DNA of 64,000 nucleotides from an uncultured Clostridia bacterium (lineage in GTDB: Bacteria; Bacillota; Clostridia; Christensenellales; DTU072). Of the stretch, positions 28,067 through 51,800 are shown in pieces (position 1 is the stretch's first letter; every line of letters starts with the position of its first letter). The notes below the pieces were generated by a model. The model searched no databases and was not told the DNA's origin. It saw only the letters and a program-made list of their open reading frames with translations. The translations under genes and the position numbers were made by a program. Location of the stretch: positions 24,134 to 88,133 of the forward strand of contig CALVJA010000005.1 in NCBI GenBank assembly GCA_944331875.1, in the 5' to 3' direction.

Positions 28067-29368
28067 TCATTTTCCGCGTCGGCGGCGGAAAAAGCAGAGA
28101 AAAAGGCGTTTGAATTTGTTTTCCCTTCGGGCGCCCTTCAGGTAATGCGTTTCCTTGATGAACGCGTCGAGCTTTGCCTGCATTGAACGAAGTACTCCCG
28201 AATACACGGGATCGTACAGGCGGTTTTCCGTTTCCGCGGGGTCGACGGCTTTGTCCAGGAGAAGCCACGCTACGCGCGCGCCTTCGGACTCCTTTTCGGC
28301 ATAGATATATCTTTCGTTCACGACGGCTGCGCCCTTCAACGATTCGCTTATCTCGATGTACAGACAGTCGTGCGCCCTTTTGCCGGAGAGCACATAAGGC
28401 ATCAGATCGCTGCCGCGGTACTCGGGCGGCGCGGGTATCCCCGCTAGTCCCAAAAGGGTGGGCGGCAGGTCGTAAAGGGAAACGGGCGCGTCGTATATTT
28501 TTCCGTGCGGCACGCCGTCGCCGAACAATATCATCGGGATATGCGTGGAAGCGGAGTGCGGCGAGCGTTTGTATTCGGAGTTACGGGTCATGAAATGACA
28601 GCCGTGGTCGGAAGAGTATACAAACACCGTCTTGCCGCCCGCGGCACGCGCGGCGGCGACTATGCGGGAGAGGTTTTCGTCCAAAGTCCTGCACAGCCCC
28701 AGGTAGTCCGCGTAGTTTTCGGGCGCGTTGCCCTTGAGCTTAAGATCCGCCGGTAGGGGTGCCGTTTTGAACATTTCGGATACCCGTTCTTCGCATTCGA
28801 ATTTACCGGTAGTGTTTTGGTGGTGCGGCTCCAGATACGATATCATCAAAAAATACGGCTTGTCGTGGGGGCGCGATATGTACTCCAAGGCATGATCCGT
28901 ATACGCCTTTACGCGCCCGTTTTCGAAGGGGTGCGGAGTGCCGTCCGCCTCCCACAGAACGCCCCGTTTGCCGTCGGAGGAAAACTCCGGTAGATCCGCC
29001 GCGAGCGTGAAGTCGTAGCCGTAGATCTTACCGGATGGTATTGGGGTGTCGCGGTATTGAAGACCCTCGGAGGCAAGGTGCCATTTGCCGATATACGCCG
29101 TTTCGTATCCCGCGTCCGAAAAGTATTTCCCGAGCGTGCGCGTTTCGCTTAGAGGTATGCCGTTTATCTCGTTTCCCGCGTCGGAAGCGTACATGCCCGT
29201 CTGAAGTACTGCGCGCGCGGGGCCGCACAGCGGCTGCGCGGTGTGCGCCTCGGTAAAACGCACTCCCTCCTCGGAGTATGCGTAAAGGGCGGGAGTCACC
29301 TCCCTTGTCACGGTGTCCGCGCGCTGTTGGTCGCTGAAGATAAATATGATATTCGGTCTAACATCCAT
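28067..29368 (-). CDS. Sulfatase (Cys-type formylglycine motif)
   Basis: 433 aa with N-terminal PNIIFIFSDQQRAD and the C-x-P-x-R motif in PLCGPARAVLQTG. No signal peptide is visible. Confidence 0.8.
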   Translation of the reverse strand: MDVRPNIIFIFSDQQRADTVTREVTPALYAYSEEGVRFTEAHTAQPLCGPARAVLQTGMYASDAGNEINGIPLSETRTLGKYFSDAGYETAYIGKWHLASEGLQYRDTPIPSGKIYGYDFTLAADLPEFSSDGKRGVLWEADGTPHPFENGRVKAYTDHALEYISRPHDKPYFLMISYLEPHHQNTTGKFECEERVSEMFKTAPLPADLKLKGNAPENYADYLGLCRTLDENLSRIVAAARAAGGKTVFVYSSDHGCHFMTRNSEYKRSPHSASTHIPMILFGDGVPHGKIYDAPVSLYDLPPTLLGLAGIPAPPEYRGSDLMPYVLSGKRAHDCLYIEISESLKGAAVVNERYIYAEKESEGARVAWLLLDKAVDPAETENRLYDPVYSGVLRSMQAKLDAFIKETHYLKGARRENKFKRLFLCFFRRRRGK

Positions 29369-30305: not shown

Positions 30306-31532
30306 ATGGATAAAAAGATCAAAAAAATAGTGCTTGCATATTCCGGCGGACTGGATACGTCCATAATCATTCCCTGGCTGAAGGAAAACTACGACGACCC
30401 CGAAATAATCGCGGTCAGCGGCGACGTCGGTCAGGGCACCGAGCTTGACGGACTCGAGGAAAAGGCGATAAAGACGGGCGCGTCGAAACTGTATGTACTG
30501 GACCTCAAAGAACAGTTCGTGACCGATTACGTCTTCCCCACGCTGAAAGCGGGCGCCAAATACGAGGAGTACCTTTTGGGCACCGCGTTCGCGCGTCCCA
30601 TCATCGCGAAGGGCATCGTCGATATCGCCCTGAAAGAGGGCGCCGACGCCATCTGCCACGGCTGCACGGGAAAGGGAAACGACCAGGTGCGTTTCGAGCT
30701 GACGATAAAAGCGTTTGCGCCGGGCATGAAGATAATCGCCCCGTGGCGTATATGGGACATAAAATCGAGGGAGGAGGAGATAGAGTACGCCGAAAAACAC
30801 AACGTACCGCTCAAGATAAACCGCGAGACCAACTACTCCAAGGACAAAAACCTGTGGCATCTGTCTCACGAGGGGCTCGACCTCGAGGATCCCGCGAACG
30901 AGCCGCAGTACGAAAAGAAGGGCTTTTTGGAGATGGGCGTGAGCCCCTTGGAAGCGCCCGATAAACCCACATACGTCACGATAGGCTTCGAAAAGGGCGT
31001 TCCCGTGACGGTGGACGGCGAAAAACTGAACCCCGTGGCGCTAGTCGAAAAGCTCAACAAGCTCGGCGGCGAGAACGGCATAGGACTATTGGACATCGTC
31101 GAGAACAGGCTGGTCGGCATGAAATCGAGGGGCGTATACGAGACCCCCGGCGGAGCGATACTCTACCGCGCGCACGAGATACTCGAAACGATATGCTTAG
31201 ACCGCGACACCGCGCATTATAAAGCAATAGTCGCTCAGCAATTTGCGGAGCAGGTGTACTTCGGCAAATGGTTCACGCCGCTGAGGGAAGCGCTCTCCGC
31301 GTTCGTCGACAAAACGCAGGAGACCGTGACCGGCGAAGTCAAACTCAAACTCTACAAGGGTAACATCATAAACGCGGGAGTCACCTCTCCGTACTCCCTG
31401 TATAACCCCGAATTTGCCACGTTCGACGAGGACGACGTGTACGATCAAAGCGATTCCGAGGGCTTCATAAACCTGTTCGGACTGCCGCTCACCGTGCGCG
31501 CCATAATGGAGAGTAAAACCAAAAAACAATAG
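30306..31532 (+). CDS. argG: Argininosuccinate synthase
   Basis: 408 aa with the [12 protein letters not shown]-binding motif and high overall family likeness. Confidence 0.95.
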
Positions 31533-31564: not shown

Positions 31565-32944
31565 ATGAGCGATCTTTGGTCGGCAAGGTTCAAAAAGGAA
31601 ACGGATAGGCTTTTGAAAAAGTTCAATTCCTCCATAAGCGTAGATTCTAAGATGTACGCGGAGGACATAGCGGGGAGCAAAGCGCACGCCGCGATGCTGA
31701 ACGAAAAGGGCATAATATCCGACCCGGACCTTGCCGCGATACGCTCGGGGCTTGACGGGATAAAAGCGGATATCGATTCCGGGAAACTTAAAATAGATCC
31801 CGAAGCGGAGGACATACATATGTTCATCGAGGGGGAGCTGACCAAAAGGATCGGCGAACCCGGGAAGCGCCTGCACACCGCCAGAAGCAGAAACGACCAG
31901 GTTGCAACGGACATACGCCTTTACCTTAAAAACCGCGCCGCGGAGTTGAAAGAAAAACTTTACGGTATGATAGAGGCGCTCTACAAAACGGCGGAGGGCG
32001 CCACCGACGCGGTGATGCCGGGGTACACCCACCTGCAGCGCGCGCAGCCGGTGACGATGGCGCACCATATGCTCGCGTACGCGTTCATGTTCATAAGGGA
32101 CTGCACGCGCCTTACGGACGCGGTGAAGAGGATGGATTTAAGCCCTTTGGGCTCCGCGGCGCTTGCCGGGACAACCTACGACATCGACAGGCACTTTACC
32201 GCCGAGGTCTTGGGATTCAGCGGAGTCGTTCAAAACTCGATGGACGGCGTGTCCGACCGCGATTTCGCGGCGGAGCTCGCGTTTACGTCTTCACTTATCA
32301 TGACGCACCTTAGCCGCCTAGCGGAGGAGATAATACTGTGGTGCTCGTGGGAGTTCAAGTTTATCGAACTCGACGACTCGTTCGCGACGGGCTCGAGCAT
32401 CATGCCCCAAAAGAAAAACCCCGACGTTGCGGAGCTGGTCAGGGGAAAAACGGGAAGAGTATACGGCGACCTTATTACGCTCCTCACGATGCTGAAAGGG
32501 CTTCCGCTCGCGTACAACAAGGATATGCAGGAGGACAAAGAGGCGGTCTTCGACGCCATAAAAACGGCGCGCGATTCGCTTGAGATATTCGCGCCCATGA
32601 TTCTCACGATGAAATTAAGGCGCGACAACATGCTTTTAGCCGCCAAGCGCGGATTCATAAACGCCACAGACATGGCGGACTACCTGACGAAAAAGGGGAT
32701 GCCTTTCCGCACCGCGTACAAGATAACCGGAGAACTCGTCGCCTACGCGCAGGATAAAGGCGCGGGGCTCGAGGACCTGCCGCTTGAGGAACTCAAGGAA
32801 AAGTGCGAACTTTTCGATACCGACGTATACGAGGCGATAGCCGTTAAAAACTGCCTCGAAAAGCGCGTATCCGAGGGCGGTCCCTCCGCCGCGGCGGTTG
32901 AGAAACAGCTTGACGCCGTAAAGGAGTTTTTAGACAATGTATAA
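31565..32944 (+). CDS. argH: Argininosuccinate lyase
   Basis: 459 aa with the fumarate-lyase signature GSSIMPQKKNPD. Confidence 0.95.
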   Translation: MSDLWSARFKKETDRLLKKFNSSISVDSKMYAEDIAGSKAHAAMLNEKGIISDPDLAAIRSGLDGIKADIDSGKLKIDPEAEDIHMFIEGELTKRIGEPGKRLHTARSRNDQVATDIRLYLKNRAAELKEKLYGMIEALYKTAEGATDAVMPGYTHLQRAQPVTMAHHMLAYAFMFIRDCTRLTDAVKRMDLSPLGSAALAGTTYDIDRHFTAEVLGFSGVVQNSMDGVSDRDFAAELAFTSSLIMTHLSRLAEEIILWCSWEFKFIELDDSFATGSSIMPQKKNPDVAELVRGKTGRVYGDLITLLTMLKGLPLAYNKDMQEDKEAVFDAIKTARDSLEIFAPMILTMKLRRDNMLLAAKRGFINATDMADYLTKKGMPFRTAYKITGELVAYAQDKGAGLEDLPLEELKEKCELFDTDVYEAIAVKNCLEKRVSEGGPSAAAVEKQLDAVKEFLDNV

Positions 32945-33851
32945 GGTATTCGTCGACGGCTGGCAGGGTACGACGGGGCTCAGGATAGCGGAGCGGCTCG
33001 CGGAAAGAGAGGACATCGAACCCGTCATTTTGGAGGACGCCGCGAGAAAAGATATCTTCAGGCGGCTCGAAGCGATGAAGTCTTCCGACATCACCGTATT
33101 GTGCCTTCCCGACGACGCGGCGCGCGAGATAGCAAGTTTGGCTCCCGATAAGGCGCGGATAATAGACGCTTCCACCGCGCACAGGACTTCTCCCGGGTGG
33201 GTATACGGTATGCCGGAGCTCGGCTTAGATCTCAGGGAAAAAATAGCCCTCGCAAAGCGCGTCGCGAATCCCGGCTGCCACGCCTCCGGCGTGACGGCGA
33301 TAATTTATCCGCTCATAAAAAGCGGAGTTTTGACTCCCGAAGCGCTTGTTTCGGCAACCTCGATAACGGGTTACAGCGGCGGGGGCAAAAAGATGATAGC
33401 GGAATACGAAGAAAAAAATTATATGTATCCGCGCCCCTATTCGCCGGGACAAAACCACAAGCATCTGGCGGAGATAACATATGTAACGGGGCTTAAAAAC
33501 GCCCCCGTATTCGTCCCCGTCGTAGCCCCATTTTATTCGGGGATGATGGTGACTGTACCGCTTCATATCTCCGAACTGAACGGCATCGATTCGCCCGAAA
33601 GGCTGAACGAGCTGTACTCCGATTTTTACGTGGGCGGCGTCATACGATCGGGAGAGATTTACGAAAACGGATTCGCTTCGGCGGGGATGCTCTCGGGAAG
33701 GGACGACATGATAATCTCCGTAAACGGCAACGGCGAAAGGCTGACGGTGACGGCGGTCTTCGACAACCTCGGCAAGGGCGCATCGGGCGCGTGCTTACAA
33801 AACATGAACATAATGCTCGGAATAAACGAAAGGACGGGACTTAATATATGA
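32937..33851 (+). CDS. argC: N-acetyl-gamma-glutamyl-phosphate reductase (short, type-2 form)
   Basis: 304 aa. N-terminus VFVDGWQGTTGLRI, active-site region ANPGCHASG. Overlaps the argH stop. Confidence 0.85.
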   Translation: MYKVFVDGWQGTTGLRIAERLAEREDIEPVILEDAARKDIFRRLEAMKSSDITVLCLPDDAAREIASLAPDKARIIDASTAHRTSPGWVYGMPELGLDLREKIALAKRVANPGCHASGVTAIIYPLIKSGVLTPEALVSATSITGYSGGGKKMIAEYEEKNYMYPRPYSPGQNHKHLAEITYVTGLKNAPVFVPVVAPFYSGMMVTVPLHISELNGIDSPERLNELYSDFYVGGVIRSGEIYENGFASAGMLSGRDDMIISVNGNGERLTVTAVFDNLGKGASGACLQNMNIMLGINERTGLNI

Positions 33852-35068
33852 TAATCACAACATACGACGACGGCGTGACTTTTCCCAAGGGCTTTACCGC
33901 TTCCGGAGTACACGCGGGCTTCAGAAAAAACAGAGCGAAACTCGATCTTGCGCTCATAATGGCGGAAAAAGCGGTGCCCGCCGCGGCGGTATATACGACT
34001 AATACAGTAAAAGGCGCGCCTCTCGTCGTTACGAAAAAACACTTGGAAAACGGTTACGCGCGCGCGATAATCGTAAATTCCGGCAACGCCAACACCTGTA
34101 ACGACAACGGCATAGAGATAGCGGAAAAGACCTGCTCCATTCTCGCCGACAAATGCGGCATGTCCGCAGACGACGTCATAGTCGCCTCGACCGGCGTCAT
34201 CGGGCAGAGGATGAGTATAGAGCCATTTGAAAAGGGGATACCGGAATTGGTCGATTCCCTTTCCGCCAGTGGCGGCGAAGACGCTATGCGGGCTATAATG
34301 ACTACGGACACCGTGCCGAAGCGCGCCGCAGCGGCAGCGATGATAAACGGGCGGCAGGTAAGGATCGGCGGCATCGCCAAAGGCTCCGGGATGATATGCC
34401 CGAATATGGCGACGCTTCTCGCGTTCGTCACCACCGACGCCGTGATATCCCCCGAGGCGCTGAAACGCGCGCTGGATATCGACGTCAAAAAATCGTTCAA
34501 CATGGTCACGATAGACGGCGACACCTCGACAAACGATATGTTCGCGATAATGGCTTCGGGCGCCGCCGGGAACGAGGAGATAAAGGCGGGCACGCCCGCG
34601 TTCATGCGCTTTGTAGAACTGCTCTCAAAAGTCACCGCGTCGCTTTGCAAGCAGATCGCCGCAGACGGAGAGGGCGCCACAAAGGCTATCGAATGCCGCA
34701 TAAAGGGAGCCCAAAACATCGATATAGCGAAGAAAGCCGCAAAGGCCGTAGCAGGCAGCGCGCTGGTGAAAGCCGCTATATTCGGCGCCGACGCGAACTG
34801 GGGCAGGGTGTTGTGCGCTCTCGGATATTCCGACGAAAAACTGAACGCGGACAAAGCGGACGTCACGTTCATATCCTCTGCGGGCGAGATAGCCGTCTGC
34901 CGCGGCGGATTCGGCGCGGACTTTTCGGAGGAAAAGGCGAAGGAGATACTTTCCGCGCGTGAAATTACGATAGACGTAGACCTTCATTCGGGAGAAGCCG
35001 TGGCCACGGCGTGGGGGTGCGATCTGACGTACGACTACGTCAAAATAAACGGGGATTACCGTACCTGA
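33848..35068 (+). CDS. argJ: Bifunctional glutamate N-acetyltransferase / amino-acid acetyltransferase
   Basis: 406 aa with the autoprocessing site PNMATLLAFVTTDA. Confidence 0.95.
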   Translation: MIITTYDDGVTFPKGFTASGVHAGFRKNRAKLDLALIMAEKAVPAAAVYTTNTVKGAPLVVTKKHLENGYARAIIVNSGNANTCNDNGIEIAEKTCSILADKCGMSADDVIVASTGVIGQRMSIEPFEKGIPELVDSLSASGGEDAMRAIMTTDTVPKRAAAAAMINGRQVRIGGIAKGSGMICPNMATLLAFVTTDAVISPEALKRALDIDVKKSFNMVTIDGDTSTNDMFAIMASGAAGNEEIKAGTPAFMRFVELLSKVTASLCKQIAADGEGATKAIECRIKGAQNIDIAKKAAKAVAGSALVKAAIFGADANWGRVLCALGYSDEKLNADKADVTFISSAGEIAVCRGGFGADFSEEKAKEILSAREITIDVDLHSGEAVATAWGCDLTYDYVKINGDYRT

Positions 35069-35082
35069 AAAACGGAGGAGAT

Positions 35083-35934
35083 ATGAAACTGACAAATCAC
35101 GACAAAGCGGAAGTGCTGCTGCAGGCGCTTCCTTACATTACTAAATATGCCGGCGAGACGATAGTCATCAAATACGGCGGCAGCGCCATGACCGACGAGT
35201 CACTCAAAAAAAGCGTCGCGATGGATATCGCCTTGCTGCAAAGCACCGGCGTGAGGACCGTAGTCGTCCACGGCGGCGGACCCGAGATCAGCGAAACGCT
35301 GAAATCGATGGGGATACCGACGAAATTTTCGGGCGGGCTGCGCGTGACGGACGCCGCCACGATGAAAGTGGTGCAGATGGTGCTCGCGGGAAAGATAAAC
35401 AAAGACCTTGTCGCCCTTTTGGGCGGCGCGGGAGCCGAAGCGGTAGGGCTCAGCGGCGTGGACGGCGGCATGATAAAAGCAAAACCCCTAGGGAAAGAAA
35501 TGGGATTCGTCGGCGACGTCGAATCGGTGAACGTCAAACCCGTCACCGACCTATTGAACGCGGGATATATCCCGGTCATCGCCCCCGTGGGTATCGGCGA
35601 AGGCGGCGAGGTATACAACATAAACGCCGACACCGCCGCGGCGAGAGTCGCGGGCGCGCTGAAAGCGAAGTCGTTTTTGAACATGACGGACGAGCCGGGC
35701 ATATTGGAAGACCCCTCCGATCCCGCCTCGCTCATCCGCTCCGTCAGCGCCAGCGAAGCGAAGGAACTCATCTCCGACGGCATAGTCACTGGCGGTATGC
35801 TCCCCAAGGTAAACTGCTGCATAGACGCTATCCGACGCGGAGTGGACAAGGTATTTATAATTGACGGCAGGGAGCCGCATTCGCTCCTGATAGAGATGCT
35901 CTCCGACGAGGGCATCGGCACGATGTTTTATTGA
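35083..35934 (+). CDS. argB: Acetylglutamate kinase
   Basis: Start at ATG 35083 (GGAGGAG RBS). Contains IVIKYGGSAM and VVVHGGGPEI. Confidence 0.95.
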   Translation: MKLTNHDKAEVLLQALPYITKYAGETIVIKYGGSAMTDESLKKSVAMDIALLQSTGVRTVVVHGGGPEISETLKSMGIPTKFSGGLRVTDAATMKVVQMVLAGKINKDLVALLGGAGAEAVGLSGVDGGMIKAKPLGKEMGFVGDVESVNVKPVTDLLNAGYIPVIAPVGIGEGGEVYNINADTAAARVAGALKAKSFLNMTDEPGILEDPSDPASLIRSVSASEAKELISDGIVTGGMLPKVNCCIDAIRRGVDKVFIIDGREPHSLLIEMLSDEGIGTMFY

Positions 35935-35941
35935 GGTCGGT

Positions 35942-36856
35942 ATGAAACACTTATTGAAACTGATGGATCTCGGCGCAAAGGAGATAACGGATCTATTGAA
36001 TCTCGCGGACCAGCTGAAGTTCGAGAGGAAAAACGGCATAGAACATCCGCATCTGAAGGGTAAAACGCTCGGGATGATATTCACGAAAGCTTCCACCAGG
36101 ACGCGCGTTTCGTTCGAGGTGGGCATGTATCAGCTTGGCGGCAACGCGCTGTTTTTGAGCGGCGCCGATATGCAGATAGGAAGGGGCGAACCCGCCGAGG
36201 ACACCGCGAGGGTGCTGTCTAAATATCTTGACGGCATCATGATCAGGACCTTCAAGCAGGAAGAGGTCGAAAAGCTCGCCGCATTCGGAACGATACCCGT
36301 CATAAACGGGCTGACCGACTACTGCCACCCCTGCCAGGTGCTCGCGGACCTGATGACGATACGCGAGTTTTTAGGTTCTTTCCGCGGCAAGAAAGTGTGC
36401 TACGTCGGCGACGGCAACAACATGGCTAATTCCCTTATCGCCGGCTGCATAAAGATGGGTATGGATATAGCGATCGCTTGCCCTAAAGGCTATGAACCGG
36501 ATCCCGAACTCGTAAAATGGGGGCACGAACAGGGAAAACTCACGATAACCGACGACATAAAAGCGGCGGCGGAAAACGCCTCGGTGATGTACACGGACGT
36601 ATGGGCGAGCATGGGTCAGGAAGCGGAGAGGGAGAAGCGCATGAAGGACTTCGGGGGCTTCTGCATAGACTCAACGCTTATGAAATACGCCGCAAAAAAC
36701 GCAATAGTTCTGCACTGTCTTCCCGCGCACCGCGGCGAGGAGATCTCCGCCGAGATACTCGAAGCGCACGCGAAGGAAATATTCGAGCAGGCGGAAAACC
36801 GACTGCACGCCCAGAAAGCGGTGATGGTCGAGCTGATGGCGGATAAAAAAATCTGA
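35942..36856 (+). CDS. argF: Ornithine carbamoyltransferase
   Basis: 304 aa with STRTRVSFE, HPCQ and HCLPAHRGEE motifs. Confidence 0.9.
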   Translation: MKHLLKLMDLGAKEITDLLNLADQLKFERKNGIEHPHLKGKTLGMIFTKASTRTRVSFEVGMYQLGGNALFLSGADMQIGRGEPAEDTARVLSKYLDGIMIRTFKQEEVEKLAAFGTIPVINGLTDYCHPCQVLADLMTIREFLGSFRGKKVCYVGDGNNMANSLIAGCIKMGMDIAIACPKGYEPDPELVKWGHEQGKLTITDDIKAAAENASVMYTDVWASMGQEAEREKRMKDFGGFCIDSTLMKYAAKNAIVLHCLPAHRGEEISAEILEAHAKEIFEQAENRLHAQKAVMVELMADKKI

Positions 36857-36857
36857 T

Positions 36858-37931
36858 ATGCACAGATACATCGTACTCGAAAACGGAAAGGTATTCAAGG
36901 GACTCGCCTTCGGCGCCGAGGGAGACGCTCGGGGCGAGCTCGTCTTCACGACCGGTATGGTGGGATACGTAGAAACGCTGACTGACCCGTCGTATTACGG
37001 GCAGATCATCATGCAGACTTTCCCCGCTATCGGGAATTACGGCGTGATGTACGAGGATATGGAATCCGACCGCGCATATTGCCGCGCGTATGTGGTGAAC
37101 GATTACTGCCGCCACCCTTCGAATTTCAGAACGGATACGGATATAGATACGTTTTTGAAGGAGCAGGGTATCCCCGGCGTATACGGCGTGGACACCCGCG
37201 CGATAACGCGCGCCATCCGTTCCGAGGGCGTCATGAACGCGTATATAGTATCCGATCCCGGCGCGGTCGATATGTCGGCGCTCGCCGCCTACCGCATCGA
37301 AAACGCGGTAGAAAGCGTTACGCGCGGCAAAGAGGAGATATTCGAACCCGAAAAGGCGGAATACACCGTCGCTTTATTCGATTACGGCGCAAAACAGAAT
37401 ATAATCCGCTCGCTCGTAAAGCACAACGCGCGCGTGGTGTGCGTGCCTGCGGGCACCTCGGCAAAACGGATAAAAGACATCGCCCCGGACGGGATAATGC
37501 TCTCGAACGGTCCCGGCGACCCCGCCGAAAACAAGCGCGAAATAGGCGTTATCGCCTCTTTGTTCGGATATAAACCGATATTCGGGATATGCCTGGGGCA
37601 CCAGCTCGCGGCGCTTGCCGCGGGCGCGAAGACGGTGAAACTGAAATACGGTCACCGCGGCGCCAACCAACCCGTCAAACAGCTTGCGACGGGGCGCACG
37701 TTCATAACGAGCCAGAACCACGGCTACGCCGTCGATCCCGATTCCGTAAAGACGGGTAAGGTCAGCTATTTGAATGCGAACGACTTCACCTGCGAGGGGA
37801 TAGACTATCCCGAGTTCGGCGCAATGACGGTGCAGTTCCACCCCGAGGCCACCGCGGGTCCCACGGATATGCGCGGCTTGTTCGACGCGTTCACGGAAAT
37901 GATGAAAGGAGGTACCGATGCCTCTAGATAG
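36858..37931 (+). CDS. carA: Carbamoyl-phosphate synthase small (glutaminase) subunit
   Basis: 357 aa with the GATase triad region GICLGHQ and N-terminal LVFTTGMVGYVETLTDPSY. Confidence 0.95.
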   Translation: MHRYIVLENGKVFKGLAFGAEGDARGELVFTTGMVGYVETLTDPSYYGQIIMQTFPAIGNYGVMYEDMESDRAYCRAYVVNDYCRHPSNFRTDTDIDTFLKEQGIPGVYGVDTRAITRAIRSEGVMNAYIVSDPGAVDMSALAAYRIENAVESVTRGKEEIFEPEKAEYTVALFDYGAKQNIIRSLVKHNARVVCVPAGTSAKRIKDIAPDGIMLSNGPGDPAENKREIGVIASLFGYKPIFGICLGHQLAALAAGAKTVKLKYGHRGANQPVKQLATGRTFITSQNHGYAVDPDSVKTGKVSYLNANDFTCEGIDYPEFGAMTVQFHPEATAGPTDMRGLFDAFTEMMKGGTDASR

Positions 37932-40900
37932 ATCGATAAAAAAGGTTTTGGTCATAGGATCCGGCCCGATAGTGATAGGTCAGGCGGCGGAATTCGATTA
38001 TGCGGGCACGCAGGCTTGCCGCGTACTGAAAGCGGAGGGGATAAAGGTGGTCCTCGTGAACTCGAACCCCGCCACCATCATGACCGACGCGGCGCTTGCG
38101 GACGCCATTTACACGGAGCCGTTGACCATCGAAACGGTAAAAAGGATAATCATAAAGGAAAAGCCCGATTCCGTCCTCGGCACGCTGGGCGGTCAGACGG
38201 GACTTACTCTGTCGATGCAGCTCGAAAAAGAGGGCTTCCTGAAAAAACACAACGTGCGCCTCATCGGCACGGGCGCCGAAGCGATATGCCTTGCCGAGGA
38301 CAGGGAGCTGTTCAAGGAAACGATGCAGTCTATCAATATGCCCTGCATCCCTTCGGACATCGCCTCCACGGTCGAGGAAGCGCTTCATGCGGCGGAAAAG
38401 ACGGGTTATCCCGTAATCGTACGCCCCGCGTTCACTTTGGGCGGGCACGGCGGCGGCGTCGCATACGATCCCGAGGGACTGAAGGAAGTCGCCGCGGGCG
38501 GCATAGACGCCTCCCCCATATCGCAGATATTGGTCGAAAGATACATCTACGGCTGGAAAGAGATAGAATTCGAGGCGGTGCGCGACAACATAGGAAACTG
38601 CATAGCTGTGTGCAGCATGGAAAACGTCGACCCCGTCGGCGTGCACACCGGCGACTCCGTCGTCGTGGCGCCCGCTCTGACGCTGTCGGACAAGGAATAC
38701 GAAATGCTGAGGACCGCGTCCATCGAGATCGTGTCGGCACTCGGGATACGCGGCGGCTGCAACTGCCAATTCGCGCTCGACCCCGATTCGATGCGTTTTG
38801 CGGTCATAGAGGTGAATCCGAGGCTGTCGCGCTCGTCCGCGCTCGCCAGTAAGGCGACGGGATATCCGATAGCGAAAGTGGCTACGCGCATAGCTTTAGG
38901 GTATGACCTGGACGAGATAAAAAACGAGGTGACGGGAAAGACCTGCGCCTGCTTCGAGCCCGCGATAGACTACGTCGTGTGCAAATTCCCGAAGTGGCCC
39001 TTCGATAAATTCGTGTATGCGGACAGGACTTTGGGCACGCAGATGAAGGCGACGGGCGAGGTGATGAGCATTGCGCCGAATTTCGAGGCGGCGATAATGA
39101 AAGCGGTCAGGGGCGCGGAGATAGGGCTCGATACCCTGAATATGCCCGCGCTTAGCGACATAGACGTCCGTAAAGCGCTCCGCGTGACGGACGACAGGCG
39201 CATATTCGTCATATTCAAAGCGCTCAAAGAGGGCGTAACGCCCGAGGAGATATTCGAGATAACGCGGGTGGATAAATTCTTCCTGTACAAGATGAAAAAC
39301 CTCGCGGAGTACGAGGCGAAGATTTCCTCGAAGGCGCTGACGAGAGAGGAGTATCTCGAAGGGAAACGTTTGGGGTATACGGACAAGGCGCTTGAACGCA
39401 TATCCGCTCATCCGGTACCCGAACATCGCCAAGCGGTATACAAAATGGTGGATACATGCGCCGCGGAGTTCGACGCGGAAACGCCGTACTTCTATGCCGC
39501 GTACTCGGACGAGGACGAGGCGGAAGCGCATATAGACCGCTCCAAAAAAAGCGTTCTGGTGCTGGGCTCCGGTCCCATTCGCATAGGGCAGGGCATAGAG
39601 TTCGATTATTCCAGCGTGCACTGCGCGTGGGCGATAAAAAAAGAGGGATACGAAGTCAGTATCATAAACAACAACCCGGAAACCGTATCCACCGATTTCG
39701 ACGTCGCGGACAGGCTCTATTTCGAGCCGCTGACTCCGGAGGACGTCGACAACGTGATAGCGGTCGAGCAGCCGATAGGCGTAGTGGTCGCGTTCGGCGG
39801 CCAGACCGCGATAAAGCTGACGAAGCACCTCGACGAAAAGGGGATAAAGGTCCTCGGGACGTCCGCCGACGGCATAGACATGGCGGAGGACAGGGAGCGT
39901 TTCGACAAACTCCTGGAAGAGGTCGGTTTCAAACGTCCGAAAGGATTCGGCGTCACCAATAAAACGGACGCCGTCGAAGTGGCTTCGGGGCTGGGGTATC
40001 CCGTTTTAGTGCGCCCCTCGTACGTCATCGGCGGTCAGAACATGACGATAGCGTACAACGATTTCGACGTCGAGGAGTATATGGATCTTATACTTTCGGC
40101 GGGAGCGGTCGATTCGCCGATACTCATCGATAAGTACCTGATGGGGACGGAGCTCGAAGTAGACGTCATCTCGGACGGCGAGGACGTTCTCCTTCCCGGC
40201 ATAATGCAGCACGTCGAGCGCGCCGGCGTTCATTCGGGGGACTCGATAGCGGTGTATCCGCCGTACAACATCGGCGACGTCATGCGCGAAAAGATAGTGG
40301 ACTGTTCGACAAGGCTCGCGCTCCTTTTGGGGACGAAAGGGCTTGTAAACATCCAGTATGTAATATACGAGAACGAGCTGTACGTCATCGAGGTCAACCC
40401 GAGAGCTTCGAGGACGATACCGTATCTGAGCAAAGTCACCGGCATACCCATGGTGGATATAGCCACGCACATCATGCTCGGCGGTAAACTGAAAGATTTC
40501 GATTACGGCACGGGACTTCACAAGACCGTACCTTACGTCACGGCGAAAGTGCCGGTGTTCTCTTTCGAGAAGCTGAGAAACGTCAACTCGATATTGGGAC
40601 CCGAGATGAAATCGACGGGCGAGGTGCTGGGAGTCGGCAAAAACCTGGTGGAAGCGCTTTTCAAGGGGCTCACCGCGGCGGGATTCAAAATAGATATCGA
40701 CAAACCCGACCGCGGCGTATACATGTCGGTCAGGGACGTCGACAAATACGACGCCATGCGCCTTGCCAAAAAGTTTTTGGACCTCGGCGTGACGATATAT
40801 GCCGACGGCTCGGCGGCGGAGGCGGTGAGGGAGCTCGGCAGCGACTGCGTAACGGTCACCGGCGACGGCATTTATCCGCTGCTTGAAGAGGGCAGGATAG

Positions 40901-41937
40901 ACTATATCGTCAGCACATGTCCGAATACCAAGCACTATGTGGACAATTATATAAAGCTCAGGACGCGCGCCATACAGCTCGGGGTCGCGTGCATGACCTC
41001 GCTGGACACCGCGAACGCTCTCGCGGATATCCTGGCTTCGCGATTCACCGAAAAGAACACCGAGCTCGTCGACCTGAACTCAATGAGGAAGGAGCGCCTG
41101 AAGATAGCGTTTTCGAAGATGCAATCGCTCGGGAACGACGGCGTTTATATCTACGATCCCGACCACTCGATAAACTGCCCCGAAAGCCTTTCGATACACT
41201 TTTCCGACCGCAACTTCGGTATAGGCTCCAACGGGCTCGCGGTCATATCGAAATCCGATATCGCCGACGCCAGGATGGATATTTATAATAAGGACGGCTC
41301 CGACGGAAGGATATCGGGAACGTCGCTAATATGCACGGGTAAATTCCTGTACGACCACGGATATGTGAAAAAAACCGATATCTCGATAGAAACGGCGTCG
41401 GGAGTGAGAAGGCTGGGGCTGTATCTCTCGGACGGCGTCGTCTCGGGGGTGACGGCGGATATGGGAGAACCGATATTTACCCCGGAGCTTATACCCTGCA
41501 CACTGGAGGGCGACAGGATAGTAGGTGAAAAAGTAAACGTGCGCGGCAGGGAATATACCGTCACCGCGCTGTCGCTAGGCAATCCGCACCTGGTGCTGTT
41601 TCAGGACAGGGTGGACGACATCGATATCGCTTCGGTGGGCCCCGCGTTCGAGTACGCGCCCTTCTTCCCGGAAAGGACCAACGTCGAATTCGTCCGCGTA
41701 GTCAATCCCACCACCCTCAAGATGCGCGTCTGGGAGCGCGCCAACGGCGAAACGCTCGCTTCGGGTACGGGGGCTTCCGCCTCCGTCGTGGCGGCGGTCC
41801 TAAACGGCTACGTCGAAAAGGGCGTTCCCGTCACCGTCAAAACAAGGGGCGGCGACGTAGTGGTGACCTACGACGGCAATACGGTGTCGCTGACCAGTTC
41901 CGCGCACCTCGTGTTCGAGGGCGTCATCAAGCTGTAA
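37918..41937 (+). CDS. carB: Carbamoyl-phosphate synthase large subunit fused in frame to a C-terminal DapF-like (diaminopimelate-epimerase-fold) domain
   Basis: 1339 aa, against ~1070 aa for typical CarB. Two ATP-grasp halves, an oligomerisation domain and an MGS-like allosteric domain are recognisable. Residues ~1061-1339 align by eye with DapF (MQSLGNDGVYIYD ... GNPHLVLF ... FPERTNVEF ... VWERANGETLASGTG). Confidence 0.9.
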   Translation: MPLDRSIKKVLVIGSGPIVIGQAAEFDYAGTQACRVLKAEGIKVVLVNSNPATIMTDAALADAIYTEPLTIETVKRIIIKEKPDSVLGTLGGQTGLTLSMQLEKEGFLKKHNVRLIGTGAEAICLAEDRELFKETMQSINMPCIPSDIASTVEEALHAAEKTGYPVIVRPAFTLGGHGGGVAYDPEGLKEVAAGGIDASPISQILVERYIYGWKEIEFEAVRDNIGNCIAVCSMENVDPVGVHTGDSVVVAPALTLSDKEYEMLRTASIEIVSALGIRGGCNCQFALDPDSMRFAVIEVNPRLSRSSALASKATGYPIAKVATRIALGYDLDEIKNEVTGKTCACFEPAIDYVVCKFPKWPFDKFVYADRTLGTQMKATGEVMSIAPNFEAAIMKAVRGAEIGLDTLNMPALSDIDVRKALRVTDDRRIFVIFKALKEGVTPEEIFEITRVDKFFLYKMKNLAEYEAKISSKALTREEYLEGKRLGYTDKALERISAHPVPEHRQAVYKMVDTCAAEFDAETPYFYAAYSDEDEAEAHIDRSKKSVLVLGSGPIRIGQGIEFDYSSVHCAWAIKKEGYEVSIINNNPETVSTDFDVADRLYFEPLTPEDVDNVIAVEQPIGVVVAFGGQTAIKLTKHLDEKGIKVLGTSADGIDMAEDRERFDKLLEEVGFKRPKGFGVTNKTDAVEVASGLGYPVLVRPSYVIGGQNMTIAYNDFDVEEYMDLILSAGAVDSPILIDKYLMGTELEVDVISDGEDVLLPGIMQHVERAGVHSGDSIAVYPPYNIGDVMREKIVDCSTRLALLLGTKGLVNIQYVIYENELYVIEVNPRASRTIPYLSKVTGIPMVDIATHIMLGGKLKDFDYGTGLHKTVPYVTAKVPVFSFEKLRNVNSILGPEMKSTGEVLGVGKNLVEALFKGLTAAGFKIDIDKPDRGVYMSVRDVDKYDAMRLAKKFLDLGVTIYADGSAAEAVRELGSDCVTVTGDGIYPLLEEGRIDYIVSTCPNTKHYVDNYIKLRTRAIQLGVACMTSLDTANALADILASRFTEKNTELVDLNSMRKERLKIAFSKMQSLGNDGVYIYDPDHSINCPESLSIHFSDRNFGIGSNGLAVISKSDIADARMDIYNKDGSDGRISGTSLICTGKFLYDHGYVKKTDISIETASGVRRLGLYLSDGVVSGVTADMGEPIFTPELIPCTLEGDRIVGEKVNVRGREYTVTALSLGNPHLVLFQDRVDDIDIASVGPAFEYAPFFPERTNVEFVRVVNPTTLKMRVWERANGETLASGTGASASVVAAVLNGYVEKGVPVTVKTRGGDVVVTYDGNTVSLTSSAHLVFEGVIKL
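41098..41934 (+). other. DapF-like domain of the CarB fusion, with both catalytic Cys positions occupied by Ser
   Basis: ISGTSLIC stands in place of the xCGNGxRC motif, and ETLASGTGASA stands in place of the ETxACGTGACA motif. Confidence 0.7.
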
Positions 41938-42433
41938 AGCTTGTAAATAATATCCCGCCTATGCACGCCGCCGTTACGACGGCGGCATAGACCGAAAGCG
42001 CTATTTCCGCTTTTCGGTCGCCGATATTCATAAAAGGGTATCCCGAAACTGCGCCTGCGATGAACGCGACGGCGCAGTTTATAATATGCAGAGGCAGTAC
42101 GGACGGGACGCCGAATATATCGACAAAGAGAAAGTCGAACATCACGACGGATACCGCGGCGGCGCCTGCGCCGACGGCTCCGGCGAGCGCGTATCCCGCT
42201 GCATTTTCACGCGCCCTAAGGAAGGCGTATCCCGCGCACCACAATATCAAAAAGGGATAGTAGACGATCTTCAGATGTTCCCACAGCGATTCGTTTACCG
42301 GCGCCACCGCGCCGATAACGGGAGAGGGTATAAGATCGTACAGAAAATGCCACGCCGAAGCGAGCGCCGTGCCCGCGAGCGGCAGAAGAGCGATATAAAC
42401 GACAAGTCTTTTTTGCGCACGCGTTGTTTCCAT
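41927..42433 (-). CDS. Hypothetical integral membrane protein (~5 TM)
   Basis: 168 aa, hydrophobic throughout, with a conserved-looking VNESLWEHLK segment. Its 3' end overlaps the carB fusion 3' end by 11 nt (convergent). Confidence 0.55.
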   Translation of the reverse strand: METTRAQKRLVVYIALLPLAGTALASAWHFLYDLIPSPVIGAVAPVNESLWEHLKIVYYPFLILWCAGYAFLRARENAAGYALAGAVGAGAAAVSVVMFDFLFVDIFGVPSVLPLHIINCAVAFIAGAVSGYPFMNIGDRKAEIALSVYAAVVTAACIGGILFTSFTA

Positions 42434-47257: not shown

Positions 47258-48304
47258 CTAGTTTTTGCGAATATAAAAGGTGCTTCTACCCGCACCGTGC
47301 TTGGTAAGCTCGCCATTTGCAACGAGCTTTTTGATCGCGACTTCCACAGAGCTTGCGCTGAGCGACGGGCAAAGTTCATGGATTCGGGTCTTGGTGATTT
47401 TGCCCACCGAGCTTTGAACGGCTTTCCGCACCGCGTCGATCGCGGGCAGCTTTTGAGCAATTATTTCCATTCTGTCCTCAAAGTCGCGATACGCAGATAT
47501 AATGGTGCCGAGAAGATATTTGATAAACGGAGTCGGATCGTCTTTACCATCATGCCAGCCTATTTGCGCAGCGGACAGAGCATCATAATAGAGTTCCTTG
47601 TTTTTGGCGATTTTCGCCTCGAGTGAAACGTATTTACCTACCGAATAGCCTGAGCGATATAAGAGTAAAGCGGTTAGCAATCTGCTCATTCTGCCGTTGC
47701 CGTCCGAAAACGGGTGGATACACAAAAAGTCGTGAATGAAAATCGGAATGAGAATGAGCGGATCGACGTCGCCCGCCGCAATAGCAAGATCGAACTGCTC
47801 GCAGATGGAGTCAACGGCAATCGGCGTTTCATAAGGTGCAAGCGGTGTAAAAACGGTGTATTCCCTGCCGTCGTCGCCTATAGCGTTGATATAATTTTGC
47901 ACATTCTTGAACTTGCCGCCAATGCTCTTCCCCGAATGGCTGTAAAGAATTTTATGCAGTTGCAAAATGTAGTTTGCCGTTACGGGGATGTATTCGTAAT
48001 TTTCGTGTATCACATTCAGAACGTCCCTGTATCCCGCGATTTCTTCCTCGTCGCGCGTTCGGGGCATCGTCTTATCGGACAAAAGCTGTTTCAGCCTTGT
48101 ATTTGTTGTGCGAATACCCTCGATTTCGTTCGACGTTTCGGTGCTCTGTATCTTTGCCACTTCCACGAGCTTTTCAAGCTCCTGCGGCTTTTGCCCTGCA
48201 TACACGTCTTGCTTGCCCTTCGCCTCATGGATAGCGGCGATATAGGCGACCGTTTCGGAATCCCATTTTTGATTTTTAAGGGCAACATAGTCGAAAATTC
48301 GCAT
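47258..48304 (-). CDS. Fic-family protein (AMPylase-type motif) with an N-terminal inhibitory-helix motif and a C-terminal winged-helix domain
   Basis: Start chosen at ATG 48304 (GGGAGA RBS; the track start is 48337). Fic core HPFSDGNGRMSRLL matches HxFx(D/E)GNGRxxR. SNEIEG matches (S/T)xxxE(G/N). The C-terminus is wHTH-like. Confidence 0.85.
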   Translation of the reverse strand: MRIFDYVALKNQKWDSETVAYIAAIHEAKGKQDVYAGQKPQELEKLVEVAKIQSTETSNEIEGIRTTNTRLKQLLSDKTMPRTRDEEEIAGYRDVLNVIHENYEYIPVTANYILQLHKILYSHSGKSIGGKFKNVQNYINAIGDDGREYTVFTPLAPYETPIAVDSICEQFDLAIAAGDVDPLILIPIFIHDFLCIHPFSDGNGRMSRLLTALLLYRSGYSVGKYVSLEAKIAKNKELYYDALSAAQIGWHDGKDDPTPFIKYLLGTIISAYRDFEDRMEIIAQKLPAIDAVRKAVQSSVGKITKTRIHELCPSLSASSVEVAIKKLVANGELTKHGAGRSTFYIRKN

Positions 48305-48587
48305 AGCTTTATCTCCCGAACATTTTTCTTTTCTCATAAATCATAGCCATTTTTACGAGAAAAGTCAATAGGCTACGAGATTATTCTCGTAAAACACATG
48401 CCTAAATACGAGATAATGTGCTTATTCTGTCATTTTGGAAGGGTCATATGATACGGAGCGAAGCGACCCGCATAAACACACCGCGCCTGCGCGGTGACTC
48501 GCCGAAAGAAATTCACAGCAAAATTATAGCTTCACCGACACTTTACTTCCTAATAATATTTTGCTGAAATGCTTGGTAAGCAGTCCC

Positions 48588-48865: not shown

Positions 48866-51800
48866 ATGAGCTTAAGAACCGTATCGAGAGGAAAATTACT
48901 GCTTATAATATTGGCGGCTCTTGCCGTGGTGACGGCGGTCGCCGTTTCCGGGTTCTGTGCAAAGCCTGTTTCGCTTTATGCTTCCGCCGACGGCAACGCG
49001 GCGTATTCGTTCAGCGTTACCTCCGATTACACGTTCGGTTACACATTCGACGCGGGCACGAACAGCCGGCTTCCCGTCATCACCTTGCAATTCAACGGTT
49101 CCGCGACGAACTACTCCACGATGAGTTTCTGGTATCTTCTGAGCGACGACGGGGTCATAGACGCGGACGAAGACTGGGCTGAGCTTCCCGTCGGGAATTA
49201 CAATGCGACCACGGGTGAGGGAACGATCTATGTCGATTCCCTGACCGGATATGCTGCGGACGGCAGATTCGAAACATATATCTTCTTCCGCGGCGGGCTC
49301 GAAGGCGGTACGGGCGACGACGATTTTTACATAGATACCACGCCCAGGCATATATCGATCATAGGTCTTTCGACCTCAAACGACGTATACAACATCACCG
49401 AAGTCAGCGCCTCATGGAACGGCGCCCGGTACGACATGACGACGAGTTCGCCCGTATGGGCCGGCAGCGCCATCACCTTGACCGCCAGGACCAACGGCAC
49501 CGATAACGTAAATTATTTTTACAAGCTCGGCGATTCCGACCCCGTACCGTTTTCGGTTCATACCGACGCAAACGGCGATTATTACGGGCAGGCGGTCATA
49601 GGCGGCGCGGATTCCGCGATCACCGCTTACAGCGGAGCGATAATCGTCTATTCCCAAAACCGCAGCGGAACATACACGAACTATTATACCGACACCCACG
49701 ATCTATACATAAATCTGGATACGGTGCAGCCGACGTTCGCGGTATCGGCGACGGTGCCGGAGGGTTCCGGCACTGCGGCGTACTCCGAGGGTTCGTGGAC
49801 GGATAGGGCGGTCACTTTCCGTATATCTCCCACATCGGTGATATCGGGAGCGAATTACGCTTATTATACGACCGATCCAGCGGACCTGACGAACCTGTCC
49901 GAAGCCGGGAACGAATATATTTTGGATATATCCGAGGAGGGCGTTACGAACGTCACGTTCGTGGCGACCAGCGGCTCCGGACTCAGATACACTTCCCCCG
50001 GACACATTGTGCGCCGCGACTCTTCGGCGCCGGAGCTTAACGTTGCCGCCGTCGACGCGAACGGGACCTCGATAACGTCGCTCGGAACGACTCCGGGCTC
50101 GGGAGCAAGGGAGGGATACGCTTCGGGCGGCATCACTTTCACGCTTTCCAACCTGACCGCACAGCAATCCGGAAATACGGCGACGTTCTCGTACTCCGCG
50201 GACGACGGCGCGAATTTTACCGAACTCAATCCCACGAACGGACTGTATACGCTGCCCCTAGCGAATTCCGGCTCCGCCGTGTTCAACGGGACGAAATATA
50301 TTTTCAGAGTAAGTCTTGCAAGCGGACTGTACGATGAATACGCATTCGATTTTGCCATTCTGAACGGCAATTTCTATACCGACATGGAGCTCGGCGTTCC
50401 CGAGGCAAATCCCGCGGGCTGGATAAACGAACCGGTAACGGTTTCTTTCACTTTGCCCGCGTTCCTTTCCGAGGCGTTCATCGGCGTGTCCGGTACGGAA
50501 TACGATATACACGGCTACATCACCGGCGACACCTCGACCGACGTCATCATGGAAGCCGAGATATCCGATTCGCCTCTCGGCGCGGGATACAAAGTGTATA
50601 CCGTTTCGGTGGAACGCAATCTGAACGGGCAAAGTTACTCCTTCGTAATTTATGACAGGGCGGGGAACGCCGTTCGTTACGAGACCGACGAAAACGGCAA
50701 TATCGTCACCGATCCCGATACCGAGGAGACGTTCCCGCTCAGGACGGGGATACTGTATCTGGATCTCGTGACCCCGGGGTACGACGTCGTAAAGACCGTC
50801 GGTTCGAGTTCCATAGTTCTCGAGGACGACGGCTGGTCGGCGGAGGAAGTCGTTATCACGATAACTCCCGTCGTTCCCGTATCCGGCGTCAACCTTTATA
50901 TAATGCGTTCCGAAAATCAGCCTTCTACCGAGACTCTGACCATGACGGAGGACGGCACATATGTGTTCACCGCTTCCGCGTCCGGCAGATACGGTTTCAG
51001 GCTCATGAGCGGAGCGGGAAATTACGCGGATATCTGGACGGAAGTCAACATCGACTCCGCCGCTATATCCTATGTCGAACCCGACGAGCCTTGGGCGGCG
51101 TACAGAATGGAGCCGGACGGCACACGCGGCAGTGAGATAGATTATGTTTATGAGTCCAATTCCTACGGCACCGTCGCCACGGATATCCTCTTGACGTTCG
51201 CGACGAACCAGAACGCGGGCGAAGACAGGGGACATTTCGATATTTTTTATTACGACTATACTGCCGCGGGCAGTTTGAACGACACGATCGATAATTACAC
51301 TTTGTACGACGACGAATACGTTCTGAACGCGTTCCCCGATTCGTTTTTGCTGACGATGCCCGACAACGCTTCGCGCGGAACGCTCCGCTACGCGTTCATT
51401 CTGCGCTCCAAAGCGGTCGATTCGAACGGAACGTATACGTATACCGAAGTCAGGCGCATCGAGATAAATTACGACGTAACTCCCTTCCGGATAAGCGTCA
51501 CCAGCTCGTACGGCGACTCGTCCGCGTGGACGGGGAGCGAGATAACCTTCGATCTTTCGCTCAGCGATCCGGACAACACGGCGGAGATAGATATAGCGTA
51601 TTACGAGTATCGTCTGGGCGATAACGGCGCATGGGTCGGGATCGAGCCCGCTTTCGGTTCCTCCGTGAGCTTTACGCAGACCTTTATATTCGGTGGCATC
51701 AAACAGTATGTGGATATCCCCGGCATAGACGAGTCCTCGGGCGACAGCTCGGAGTCCGCGAATTTCATGAGCTATAACGGGAACATTTATTTCCGCGCCG

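Follow-up and report, generated by a model that had tools for sequence, protein, structure and literature searches.

The window analysed here, a 64,000-nucleotide stretch of the genome of an uncultured Clostridia bacterium (contig CALVJA010000005.1), carries an arginine operon with the gene order argG-argH-argC-argJ-argB-argF-carA-carB::dapF, in which the last gene joins carB, for carbamoyl-phosphate synthase (CPSase), to a sequence related to dapF, the gene of diaminopimelate (DAP) epimerase. The same order is found in five related genomes (L001, L002, L004, L005 and L008), carA also lies upstream of carB in relatives, and the fused gene of the window (hereafter the query) is the CPSase gene of this arginine operon. 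Open reading frame (ORF) analysis of the window gives a single frame of 1339 codons without interruption (37918..41937, + strand). Its CarB part matches the equivalog model NF003671 over positions 1-1049 of 1058 with 1384 bits (cut-off 599), exceeds the cut-off of TIGR01369 (1367 versus 1027 bits) and contains the Pfam domains CPSase_L_D1, D2, D3 and MGS; both ATP-grasp halves, the oligomerisation domain and the MGS-like domain are present, and the alignment with E. coli CarB reaches E. coli residue 1068 of 1073. A preliminary description, made from the letters alone, had noted that the frame runs about 275 codons past the usual end of CarB and that the extension spans the whole length of DapF, and both points hold. 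The extension has about 277 residues (41104-41934), and residues 1063-1337 match positions 1-268 of the 270 positions of the DapF model TIGR00652 with 206-211 bits (211.5 at most; cut-off 114.65). Pfam PF01678 is matched twice in this part, whose closest relative of solved structure, as found by phmmer, is Bacillus anthracis DapF (2otn, E=7e-57). The coordinates are collected in Table 1.

Table 1. Features of the fused gene and of the genes around it, in positions of the window.
Feature	Position	Strand	Basis
CarB proper, residues 1-1042: two ATP-grasp halves, oligomerisation, MGS-like allosteric domain	37918..41043	+	NF003671, TIGR01369, Pfam
Junction, residues 1043-1062, ...RFTEKNTELVDLNSMRKERLK	41044..41103	+	conserved motif across fused family; AlphaFold2 pLDDT 59-75
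DapF-like domain, residues 1063-1339, and stop codon	41104..41937	+	TIGR00652, 2otn match, AlphaFold2/Foldseek
N1073 (N11), retained	41134-41136	+	mapping on H. influenzae DapF
Distal L-centre binders N1124 (N64), N1222 (N157), H1224, N1255 (N190), E1273 (E208), R1274 (R209)	41287..41739	+	mapping on H. influenzae DapF
S-G-T-S replacing C73-G74-N75-G76	41314..41325	+	invariant in window and L001-L008; codons TCG/TCC
S-G-T replacing C217-G218-S/T219	41761..41769	+	invariant in window and L001-L008
argG	30306-31532	+	NCBIfam equivalog above cut-off
argH	31565-32944	+	NCBIfam equivalog above cut-off
argC	32937-33851	+	NCBIfam equivalog above cut-off
argJ	33848-35068	+	NCBIfam equivalog above cut-off
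argB	35011-35934	+	NCBIfam equivalog above cut-off
argF, ornithine carbamoyltransferase, uses carbamoyl phosphate	35942..36856	+	NF001986 437 bits, TIGR00658 410 bits
carA, CPSase small (glutaminase) subunit, 14-nucleotide overlap with carB start	36858..37931	+	NF009475 433 bits
DUF6512 membrane-protein gene, convergent, 11-nucleotide overlap with carB 3' end	41927..42433	-	ORF and family match

At the junction the native C-terminus of CarB leads straight into DapF residue 2, the stop codon being absent, through a conserved linker of about 20 residues. The motif NTELVD[IL]N..MR is kept across the whole fused family, in which the pattern reads ...TSLDTANALADI.ASRF...NTELVDIN.MR....F.KMQ..GND... 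A confident AlphaFold2 model of residues 926-1339 was obtained, with a predicted local distance difference test score (pLDDT) of 89.8 and a predicted template-modelling score (pTM) of 0.80; most of the DapF domain lies above 90 and the linker lower (Table 1). The best 26 Foldseek matches of the model are all chains of DapF or of the O-ureidoserine racemase DcsC, and the fold is the two-lobed one of DapF. The model superposes best on ligand-bound, closed DapFs (9mro, TM-score 0.92, root-mean-square deviation 1.5 Å; 3ejx, 0.90 and 1.8 Å). Compared with DapF (TIGR00652/PF01678; Haemophilus influenzae 1gqz/2gke, B. anthracis 2otn), the domain shows 36-40% identity over the full length.

The fusion is not confined to the window. 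A genome scan found the unbroken frame of about 1340 residues in 10 species-level genomes, which comprise Candidatus Stercoripulliclostridium merdigallinarum, S. pullicola, several bins of uncultured Clostridia and two more distant genomes. The identical protein occurs in NCBI and in ENA, where separate assemblies also contribute at least 13 more full-length, near-identical variants of 1339 residues; a metagenome scan with a junction-specific alignment returned about 25 further complete fused ORFs (1335-1387 residues) on contigs from human gut, sediment and other samples. These data show that, in Clostridia, carB and dapF have been joined almost seamlessly by read-through. The preliminary description had advised a search of related genomes and a check for an artefact near the junction, and the explanation by an assembly error, a frameshift or a lost stop codon that joined two separate genes is now effectively refuted: database entries of some relatives are indeed fragmented or frameshifted (e.g., L024/P0003 and L025/P0035), but the same frame stands in all of these independent assemblies, the junction is kept at the protein level, and the Ser substitutions described below do not depend on the gene join. 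The full-text literature, searched for the fusion itself, for C73S/C217S and for pseudoenzymes of the DapF family, yielded no account of a CarB-DapF fusion, and the preliminary description had likewise known of none.

Several candidates were rejected in assembling the fused set. A separate architecture with the MGS and DapF domains only was considered for P0003 (465 residues, away from a contig end), where the upstream carB in fact runs on in shifted frames; P0035 is called as two overlapping genes, a 783-residue upstream product followed by the MGS-DapF protein. L072 and L092, in which the frame is open upstream, are both stand-alone dapF genes and were removed. No carB lay within about 6 kb of a stand-alone dapF at any of 12 loci, so that no surviving carB-dapF gene pair was found as the source of the fusion. 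The protein homologue search gave only fragments of fused proteins, of 471 residues at most, although the collection searched also contains full-length 1339-residue members, the query among them; the word-index step of that search seems to recover long proteins poorly.

Catalytic positions were assigned from phmmer alignments to solved DapFs and from a MAFFT alignment against H. influenzae DapF, whose sequence as used is identical to PDB 1gqz/2gke and whose numbering is followed here. The 2otn segment SCGNGLRC aligns to ISGTSLIC in the query, and 2otn ACGTGACA aligns to ASGTGASA. Cys73 corresponds to Ser1133 (codon TCG, 41314-41316) and Cys217 to Ser1282 (codon TCG, 41761-41763). The preliminary description, which had read both catalytic cysteines as Ser and had recommended that a DapF profile be aligned at these positions, was right on this point: both are Ser in a domain that matches TIGR00652 over its full length. 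Further changes in the pocket are Asn75 to Thr1135, Gly76 to Ser1136, Phe/Tyr13 to Gly1075 and Asp43 to Asn1105; the second Cys of GACA is also Ser, in the window sequence only.

In DapF the reacting carboxylate is held by Gly74, Asn75, Gly218 and Ser219 and the reacting amine by Asn11 (PMC8225329, citing H. influenzae structures); at the distal L-centre, Asn64, Asn157, Asn190 and Arg209 hold the carboxylate, and Glu208 and Gln44 the amine (PMC8225329). The query shares with canonical DapF the reactive-centre residues Asn11, Gly74, Gly218 and Thr219 and differs in the Ser/Ser pair, N75T, the neighbouring G76S, Y/F13G and D43N. The distal L-amino-acid site is intact: the five binders Asn64, Asn157, Asn190, Glu208 and Arg209 are all present, and the position of His159 is also His. 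Further differences from canonical DapF are the fusion to the C-terminus of CarB and a place in an arginine operon rather than with DAP or lysine genes. Across 55 CarB-fused domains that lack at least one of the two cysteines (termed dead below, Cys/Cys forms being termed live), the distal-site residues are 94-98% retained, compared to a mean column conservation of 66%. The dead domains also share newly acquired, conserved residues seldom seen in stand-alone DapF (CPES, RVVN, ERGNGET and VKxRGG), and in the Ser/Ser clade the invariant clade-specific changes are grouped at the reactive centre (Y13G, D43N, C73S, N75T and C217S).

Engineered C73S and C217S mutants of DapF fold normally and still bind substrate analogues. 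The H. influenzae mutants (PDB 2q9h and 2q9j) and a Cys-to-Ser DapF of Mycobacterium tuberculosis carry the same substitutions at the same positions as the query; less than 0.1% of the activity is left in them and in Cys-to-Ser mutants of related racemases, Ser hydroxyls being very poor carbon acid/base catalysts (PMC8225329). These mutants are single and laboratory-made, whereas the two changes of the query are natural, fixed in its clade and accompanied by other changes in the pocket. Because Cys-to-Ser mutants keep so little activity, and because Asn75 is lost as well, we infer that the double-Ser domain is effectively not an epimerase. The pseudo-epimerase first proposed for the locus is thus supported by the absence of the thiol pair from an otherwise intact DapF.

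Fused forms that retain both cysteines also exist. The sampled homologues include 193 stand-alone DapFs, of which 179 are Cys/Cys, and 66 CarB-verified fused domains, of which only 11 are; the other fused domains are, at positions 73/217, Ala/Cys (28), Ser/Ser (10), Gly/Cys (5), Ser/Ala (3) and a few further combinations. In a neighbour-joining (NJ) tree of the domain, the fused sequences group almost entirely into a single block, at the base of which the Cys/Cys fused forms lie. In the NJ tree of the CarB part two clades stand apart: one is entirely dead, includes the query and lies in an arginine operon wherever the context is known, and the other has the dapL context. Every member of the arginine-operon clade lacks Cys73 (replaced by Ala, Gly or Ser), position 217 is Cys or Ser and most of these dead domains keep Cys217; Ser/Ser is confined to one sub-lineage, Ca. 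Stercoripulliclostridium and relatives. The dapL-context clade is mostly Cys/Cys with sporadic independent losses: the gene at L038:4821-8954 is Ala/Cys, and therefore dead, within the live-type context purF, carA, carB, pyrG and dapL, and further losses are seen in L055 and L058 (Gly/Cys) and in L050 (Cys/Ser).

The gene neighbourhoods differ between the two forms. At fused loci with enough flanking sequence, arginine or ornithine carbamoyltransferase (OTCase) genes lie upstream at 15 of 20 dead and 0 of 7 Cys/Cys loci (Fisher p = 9e-4), whereas dapL lies downstream at 9 of 10 live and 1 of 26 dead loci (p = 1e-6). The 40-42% "argF-like" neighbours were considered as pyrB and proved to be genuine OTCases. 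dapL, identified by TIGR03542 (513-541 bits), encodes LL-DAP aminotransferase, the maker of the DapF substrate. The context of the Cys/Cys genes reads (glnA, amt-PII or purA) - receiver-ANTAR regulator - carA - carB::dapF - pyrG - dapL. The cluster from the receiver-ANTAR gene to dapL is found in L039, L040, L043 (3123-11819, for example), L044, L048, L049 and L051, often with glnA, an amt-PII fusion or purA/purF upstream, and it looks like a nitrogen-regulated operon of glutamine- or glutamate-dependent enzymes. The Cys/Cys proteins are presumably true bifunctional CPSase-DAP epimerases. Those of L039, L040, L043, L048, L051 and L057 share junction and architecture with the query (57-61% identity overall), but they keep the thiol pair and sit beside LL-DAP aminotransferase, whereas the query belongs to the always-dead sister clade of arginine operons. 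Since the same fusion exists with Cys/Cys in the carA-carB::dapF-pyrG-dapL context, the simplest reading is that the dead domain descends from a bifunctional enzyme and was not added to CarB anew as a sensor.

Two observations concern relatives outside these clusters. A stand-alone Cys/Cys dapF lies directly before dapL in L072 (8097-10234), which shows that the adjacency of dapF and dapL also exists without the CarB fusion. A Syntrophomonas-like group (P0047, P0031, P0054, P0061 and P0062), most members of which are CarB-fused, has Ser at 73 and Ala or Thr at 217 (MSGNALTC / AAGTS). One of them, the Ser/Ala protein P0047, is annotated as a stand-alone DapF of 272 residues in the isolate genome of Syntrophomonas palmitatica and may be a mis-annotated dead copy; a search with a canonical Syntrophomonadaceae DapF for a Cys/Cys DapF alongside it gave, as its best 120 matches, mostly members of other families.

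The dead domain is not decaying. Ser/Ser and the S-G-T-S segment are invariant in the window and L001-L008, whose DapF domains are 72-81% identical, and within this clade the Ser codons drift synonymously between TCG and TCC. For pairs with saturated dS, the ratio of non-synonymous to synonymous substitution rates (dN/dS; Nei-Gojobori) in the DapF-like part is 0.12-0.23; the single unsaturated pair, L006/L007, gives 0.017 for the DapF part and 0.024 for CarB. Among 33 full-length fused proteins, the DapF part diverges 1.34 times as much as the CarB part in Cys/Cys forms, 1.43 times in dead forms other than Ser/Ser and 1.38 times in the Ser/Ser clade. As these ratios are similar, the constraint on the dead domain, measured against its own CarB, equals that on a live fused DapF, and the domain is under purifying selection. 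Loss of the catalytic residues from an intact homologue, together with purifying selection across species, is what would be expected of a pseudoenzyme domain.

From these results we propose the following sequence of events. A bifunctional CarB-DapF would have arisen through read-through fusion, and one of its descendants would have become the CPSase of an arginine operon, with an early loss of Cys73. The domain would have been kept since then; the lineage of the query would later have lost Cys217 and reshaped the reactive-centre pocket, which was then frozen. On this proposal the domain would no longer epimerise DAP and would be retained for binding a small molecule without turnover, either DAP or an L-amino acid related to it and about as large, and from the C-terminus of the allosteric domain it would probably modulate the activity or the oligomeric state of the arginine-pathway CPSase.

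What appears most likely is the broader statement that the domain is a retained non-catalytic module, ligand-binding/regulatory or structural, derived from a bifunctional ancestor. Among these roles we favour ligand binding, to which we give about an even chance, because the polar ligand-contacting residues are conserved well above background and because the reactive-centre half was remodelled and then frozen, resembling a retuned specificity. The repurposing suggested at the outset fits a domain retained under selection with much of its binding pocket intact, and the position on the C-terminus of the allosteric domain would suit an effect on CPSase activity or oligomerisation. Candidate ligands would be DAP by default and, more speculatively, arginine-pathway amino acids of similar length. 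The specific proposal that the dead DapF is a genuine sensor, which binds LL-/meso-DAP or a similarly sized amino acid of the arginine pathway (citrulline or ornithine, for instance) without turnover and thereby sets how active an arginine-specific CPSase is or how it oligomerises, is rather unlikely on present evidence.

A precedent for a non-catalytic role of DapF is found in E. coli, where DapF binds and activates RppH (PMC4227774, PMC6061791; PDB 6d13). In that case DapF is free and catalytically active and its partner is an RNA pyrophosphohydrolase, whereas the query is fused to CarB. CarB residues ~751-1062 (window 40168-41103) were also compared by hand with E. coli CarB. At the positions taken to form the site for uridine and inosine monophosphates (UMP/IMP), Ser948 and Lys954 are kept in the query, and T974D, T977A, K993V, N1015S and T1017C differ; at those presumed to form the ornithine site, Glu783, Asp791 and Thr1042 are kept and Glu892 is Val. 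The classical UMP/IMP effector pocket would then be degenerate in the query, which is only a hint but would fit an arginine-specific CPSase.

Several points weigh against the favoured explanation. In the clade of the query DAP itself may no longer fit, because N75T, G76S and D43N change the region of the pocket in which the reacting carboxylate and amine are bound, and the conservation of pocket residues could reflect the stability of the fold or of its closure. With a pTM of 0.80 and a linker of lower confidence, a fixed arrangement of the domains is not provable from the AlphaFold2 model. The trees are NJ trees with neither support values nor an unfused outgroup, the counts of gene context are not phylogenetically independent and include only about six live lineages, and close kin of the query are over-represented among the sampled homologues. 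Finally, the regulatory input to CPSase is itself something that we infer.

The alternative that survives best, though we hold it doubtful, is that the domain is a purely structural relic: the ancestor would have come to depend on DapF for its folding or for CPSase assembly, and the descendant, once it could do without the catalysis, would keep a scaffold that senses no ligand. DapF is a dimer and is placed here on the allosteric domain, which forms one CPSase oligomer interface; that live fused forms exist and are basal implies a domain inherited rather than recruited; the short conserved junction implies tight coupling; and the replacement of Cys73 by the chemically unrelated Ala, Gly and Ser across the dead clade implies that nothing specific is needed at this position. 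Dead scaffold domains are also known from other CPSase multienzymes. The glutaminase-like domain of mammalian CPS1 (5dot/5dou), inactivated as well by a Cys-to-Ser change, and the dihydroorotase (DHOase)-like domain of yeast URA2 are inactive and retained for structural or regulatory reasons; they belong to other families and are N-terminal or internal, whereas the DapF-derived domain of the query is C-terminal. A pure spacer, however, would not obviously require distal polar ligand contacts conserved far above the domain average, and it sits uneasily with a reactive-centre pocket that was remodelled in concert and then frozen in the Ser/Ser clade, and with a constraint equal to that of the live enzymes.

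It is improbable that the domain has acquired a new chemistry and acts on a DAP-like or arginine-pathway substrate through Ser, Thr or other residues, in the manner of the dehydratases derived from proline racemases in which one Cys was lost. The pocket is conserved, its reactive centre has been remodelled with hydroxyl residues (S, T, S, S), and Cys217 is still kept in most of the dead clade. Relatives of the same fold with altered catalytic pairs, such as the 3-hydroxyproline dehydratases (6r76, 4k7g) and PhzF, are enzymes. In the proline-racemase-family dehydratases, in DcsC (7vdy) and in the 2,4-diaminobutyrate (Dab) racemase PddB the fold has been retuned at the catalytic pair or at the distal site; in DcsC and PddB it is the distal site that has changed and the Cys/Cys pair that remains, whereas the query keeps the distal site and has lost the cysteines. 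These relatives remain enzymes with a consistent catalytic set, unlike the clade of the query, in which no common catalytic dyad is found (73 = A/G/S; 217 = C/S) despite equal constraint. The poor catalysis by Ser hydroxyls cited above (PMC8225329) argues in the same direction, and the arginine pathway offers no obvious missing step for a cofactor-free DapF fold, the only gene absent from the operon being argD, which encodes a pyridoxal-phosphate (PLP) enzyme.

That the domain, slow with its Ser/Ser pair, is still the working DAP epimerase of the cell is very improbable. It scores above the curated DapF cut-off, tblastn found no stand-alone dapF in the window and the fetched flanks (~64 kb of this genome), and a low activity can suffice, an E. 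coli dapF null mutant having no growth defect (10.1101/2024.10.14.618325). Yet single Cys-to-Ser mutants retain less than 0.1% activity, and here both residues are Ser and Asn75, a binder of the reacting carboxylate, is changed too; the gene stands in an arginine operon, whereas its Cys/Cys fused relatives adjoin dapL; and the search covered ~64 kb of the genome, a non-homologous DapF2 being present in Firmicutes.

Of the genes around the operon, the convergent membrane-protein gene whose overlap with the 3' end of carB was noted at the outset is real and encodes a DUF6512 protein. A homologue lies downstream in L001 and L002; since it does not overlap the carB stop codon there, the overlap is given no meaning, and the gene is probably a neighbour outside the system. 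About 14 kb downstream of the arginine operon, a class-III aminotransferase (Aminotran_3, 139 bits; window 55602-56861) might serve as ArgD. A 1957-residue ORF without a Pfam match (48866-54739, + strand) has a G+C content at third codon positions (GC3) of 0.71, like the real genes here, an N-terminal segment resembling a signal peptide and a C-terminal hydrophobic anchor with a basic tail; Thr, Ser, Gly, Asp and Tyr are abundant in it, and the product is probably a giant protein of the cell surface that belongs to no described family. The window further contains a spore germination operon of the GerA/GerB/GerC type, from which the organism is taken to be a spore-former, two surface proteins with BspA-type leucine-rich repeats, a sulfatase and a Fic-domain protein (jointly, 9670-13298, 15506-17692, 23868-24761, 28067-29368 and 47258-48337).

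For annotation, the label that best describes the element is a DapF-derived pseudoenzyme domain on CarB. Although it passes the cut-off of the hidden Markov model, it should not be filed as diaminopimelate epimerase, because the defining catalytic feature fails. Several NCBI fragments of fused relatives, most of them without the first Cys, are named "diaminopimelate epimerase, partial". As the fused proteins pass the curated DapF cut-off and the fragments carry epimerase names, automated pathway reconstruction may mistakenly assign a functional DapF to these genomes.

CPSase is a classic example of allostery, and all of its known regulatory inputs pass through the MGS-like domain. In an entire clade of Clostridia from gut and sediment, the CPSase of the arginine pathway bears at its allosteric end an additional DapF domain that is conserved and catalytically dead. 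A pseudoenzyme domain within a CPSase polypeptide is of a known kind; for a DapF-derived, C-terminal version no published description was found in the searches made. If the domain acts as a sensor, it would constitute a new regulatory link, perhaps one that ties arginine synthesis to precursors of the cell wall or of lysine, a new class of CPSase regulation made by inactivating one half of a bifunctional enzyme, and the first natural case of DapF evolving into a receptor domain. If its role is structural, it would provide a clean natural case of the conversion of a bifunctional enzyme into an enzyme with an entrenched pseudo-domain, with both live and dead forms available for comparison.

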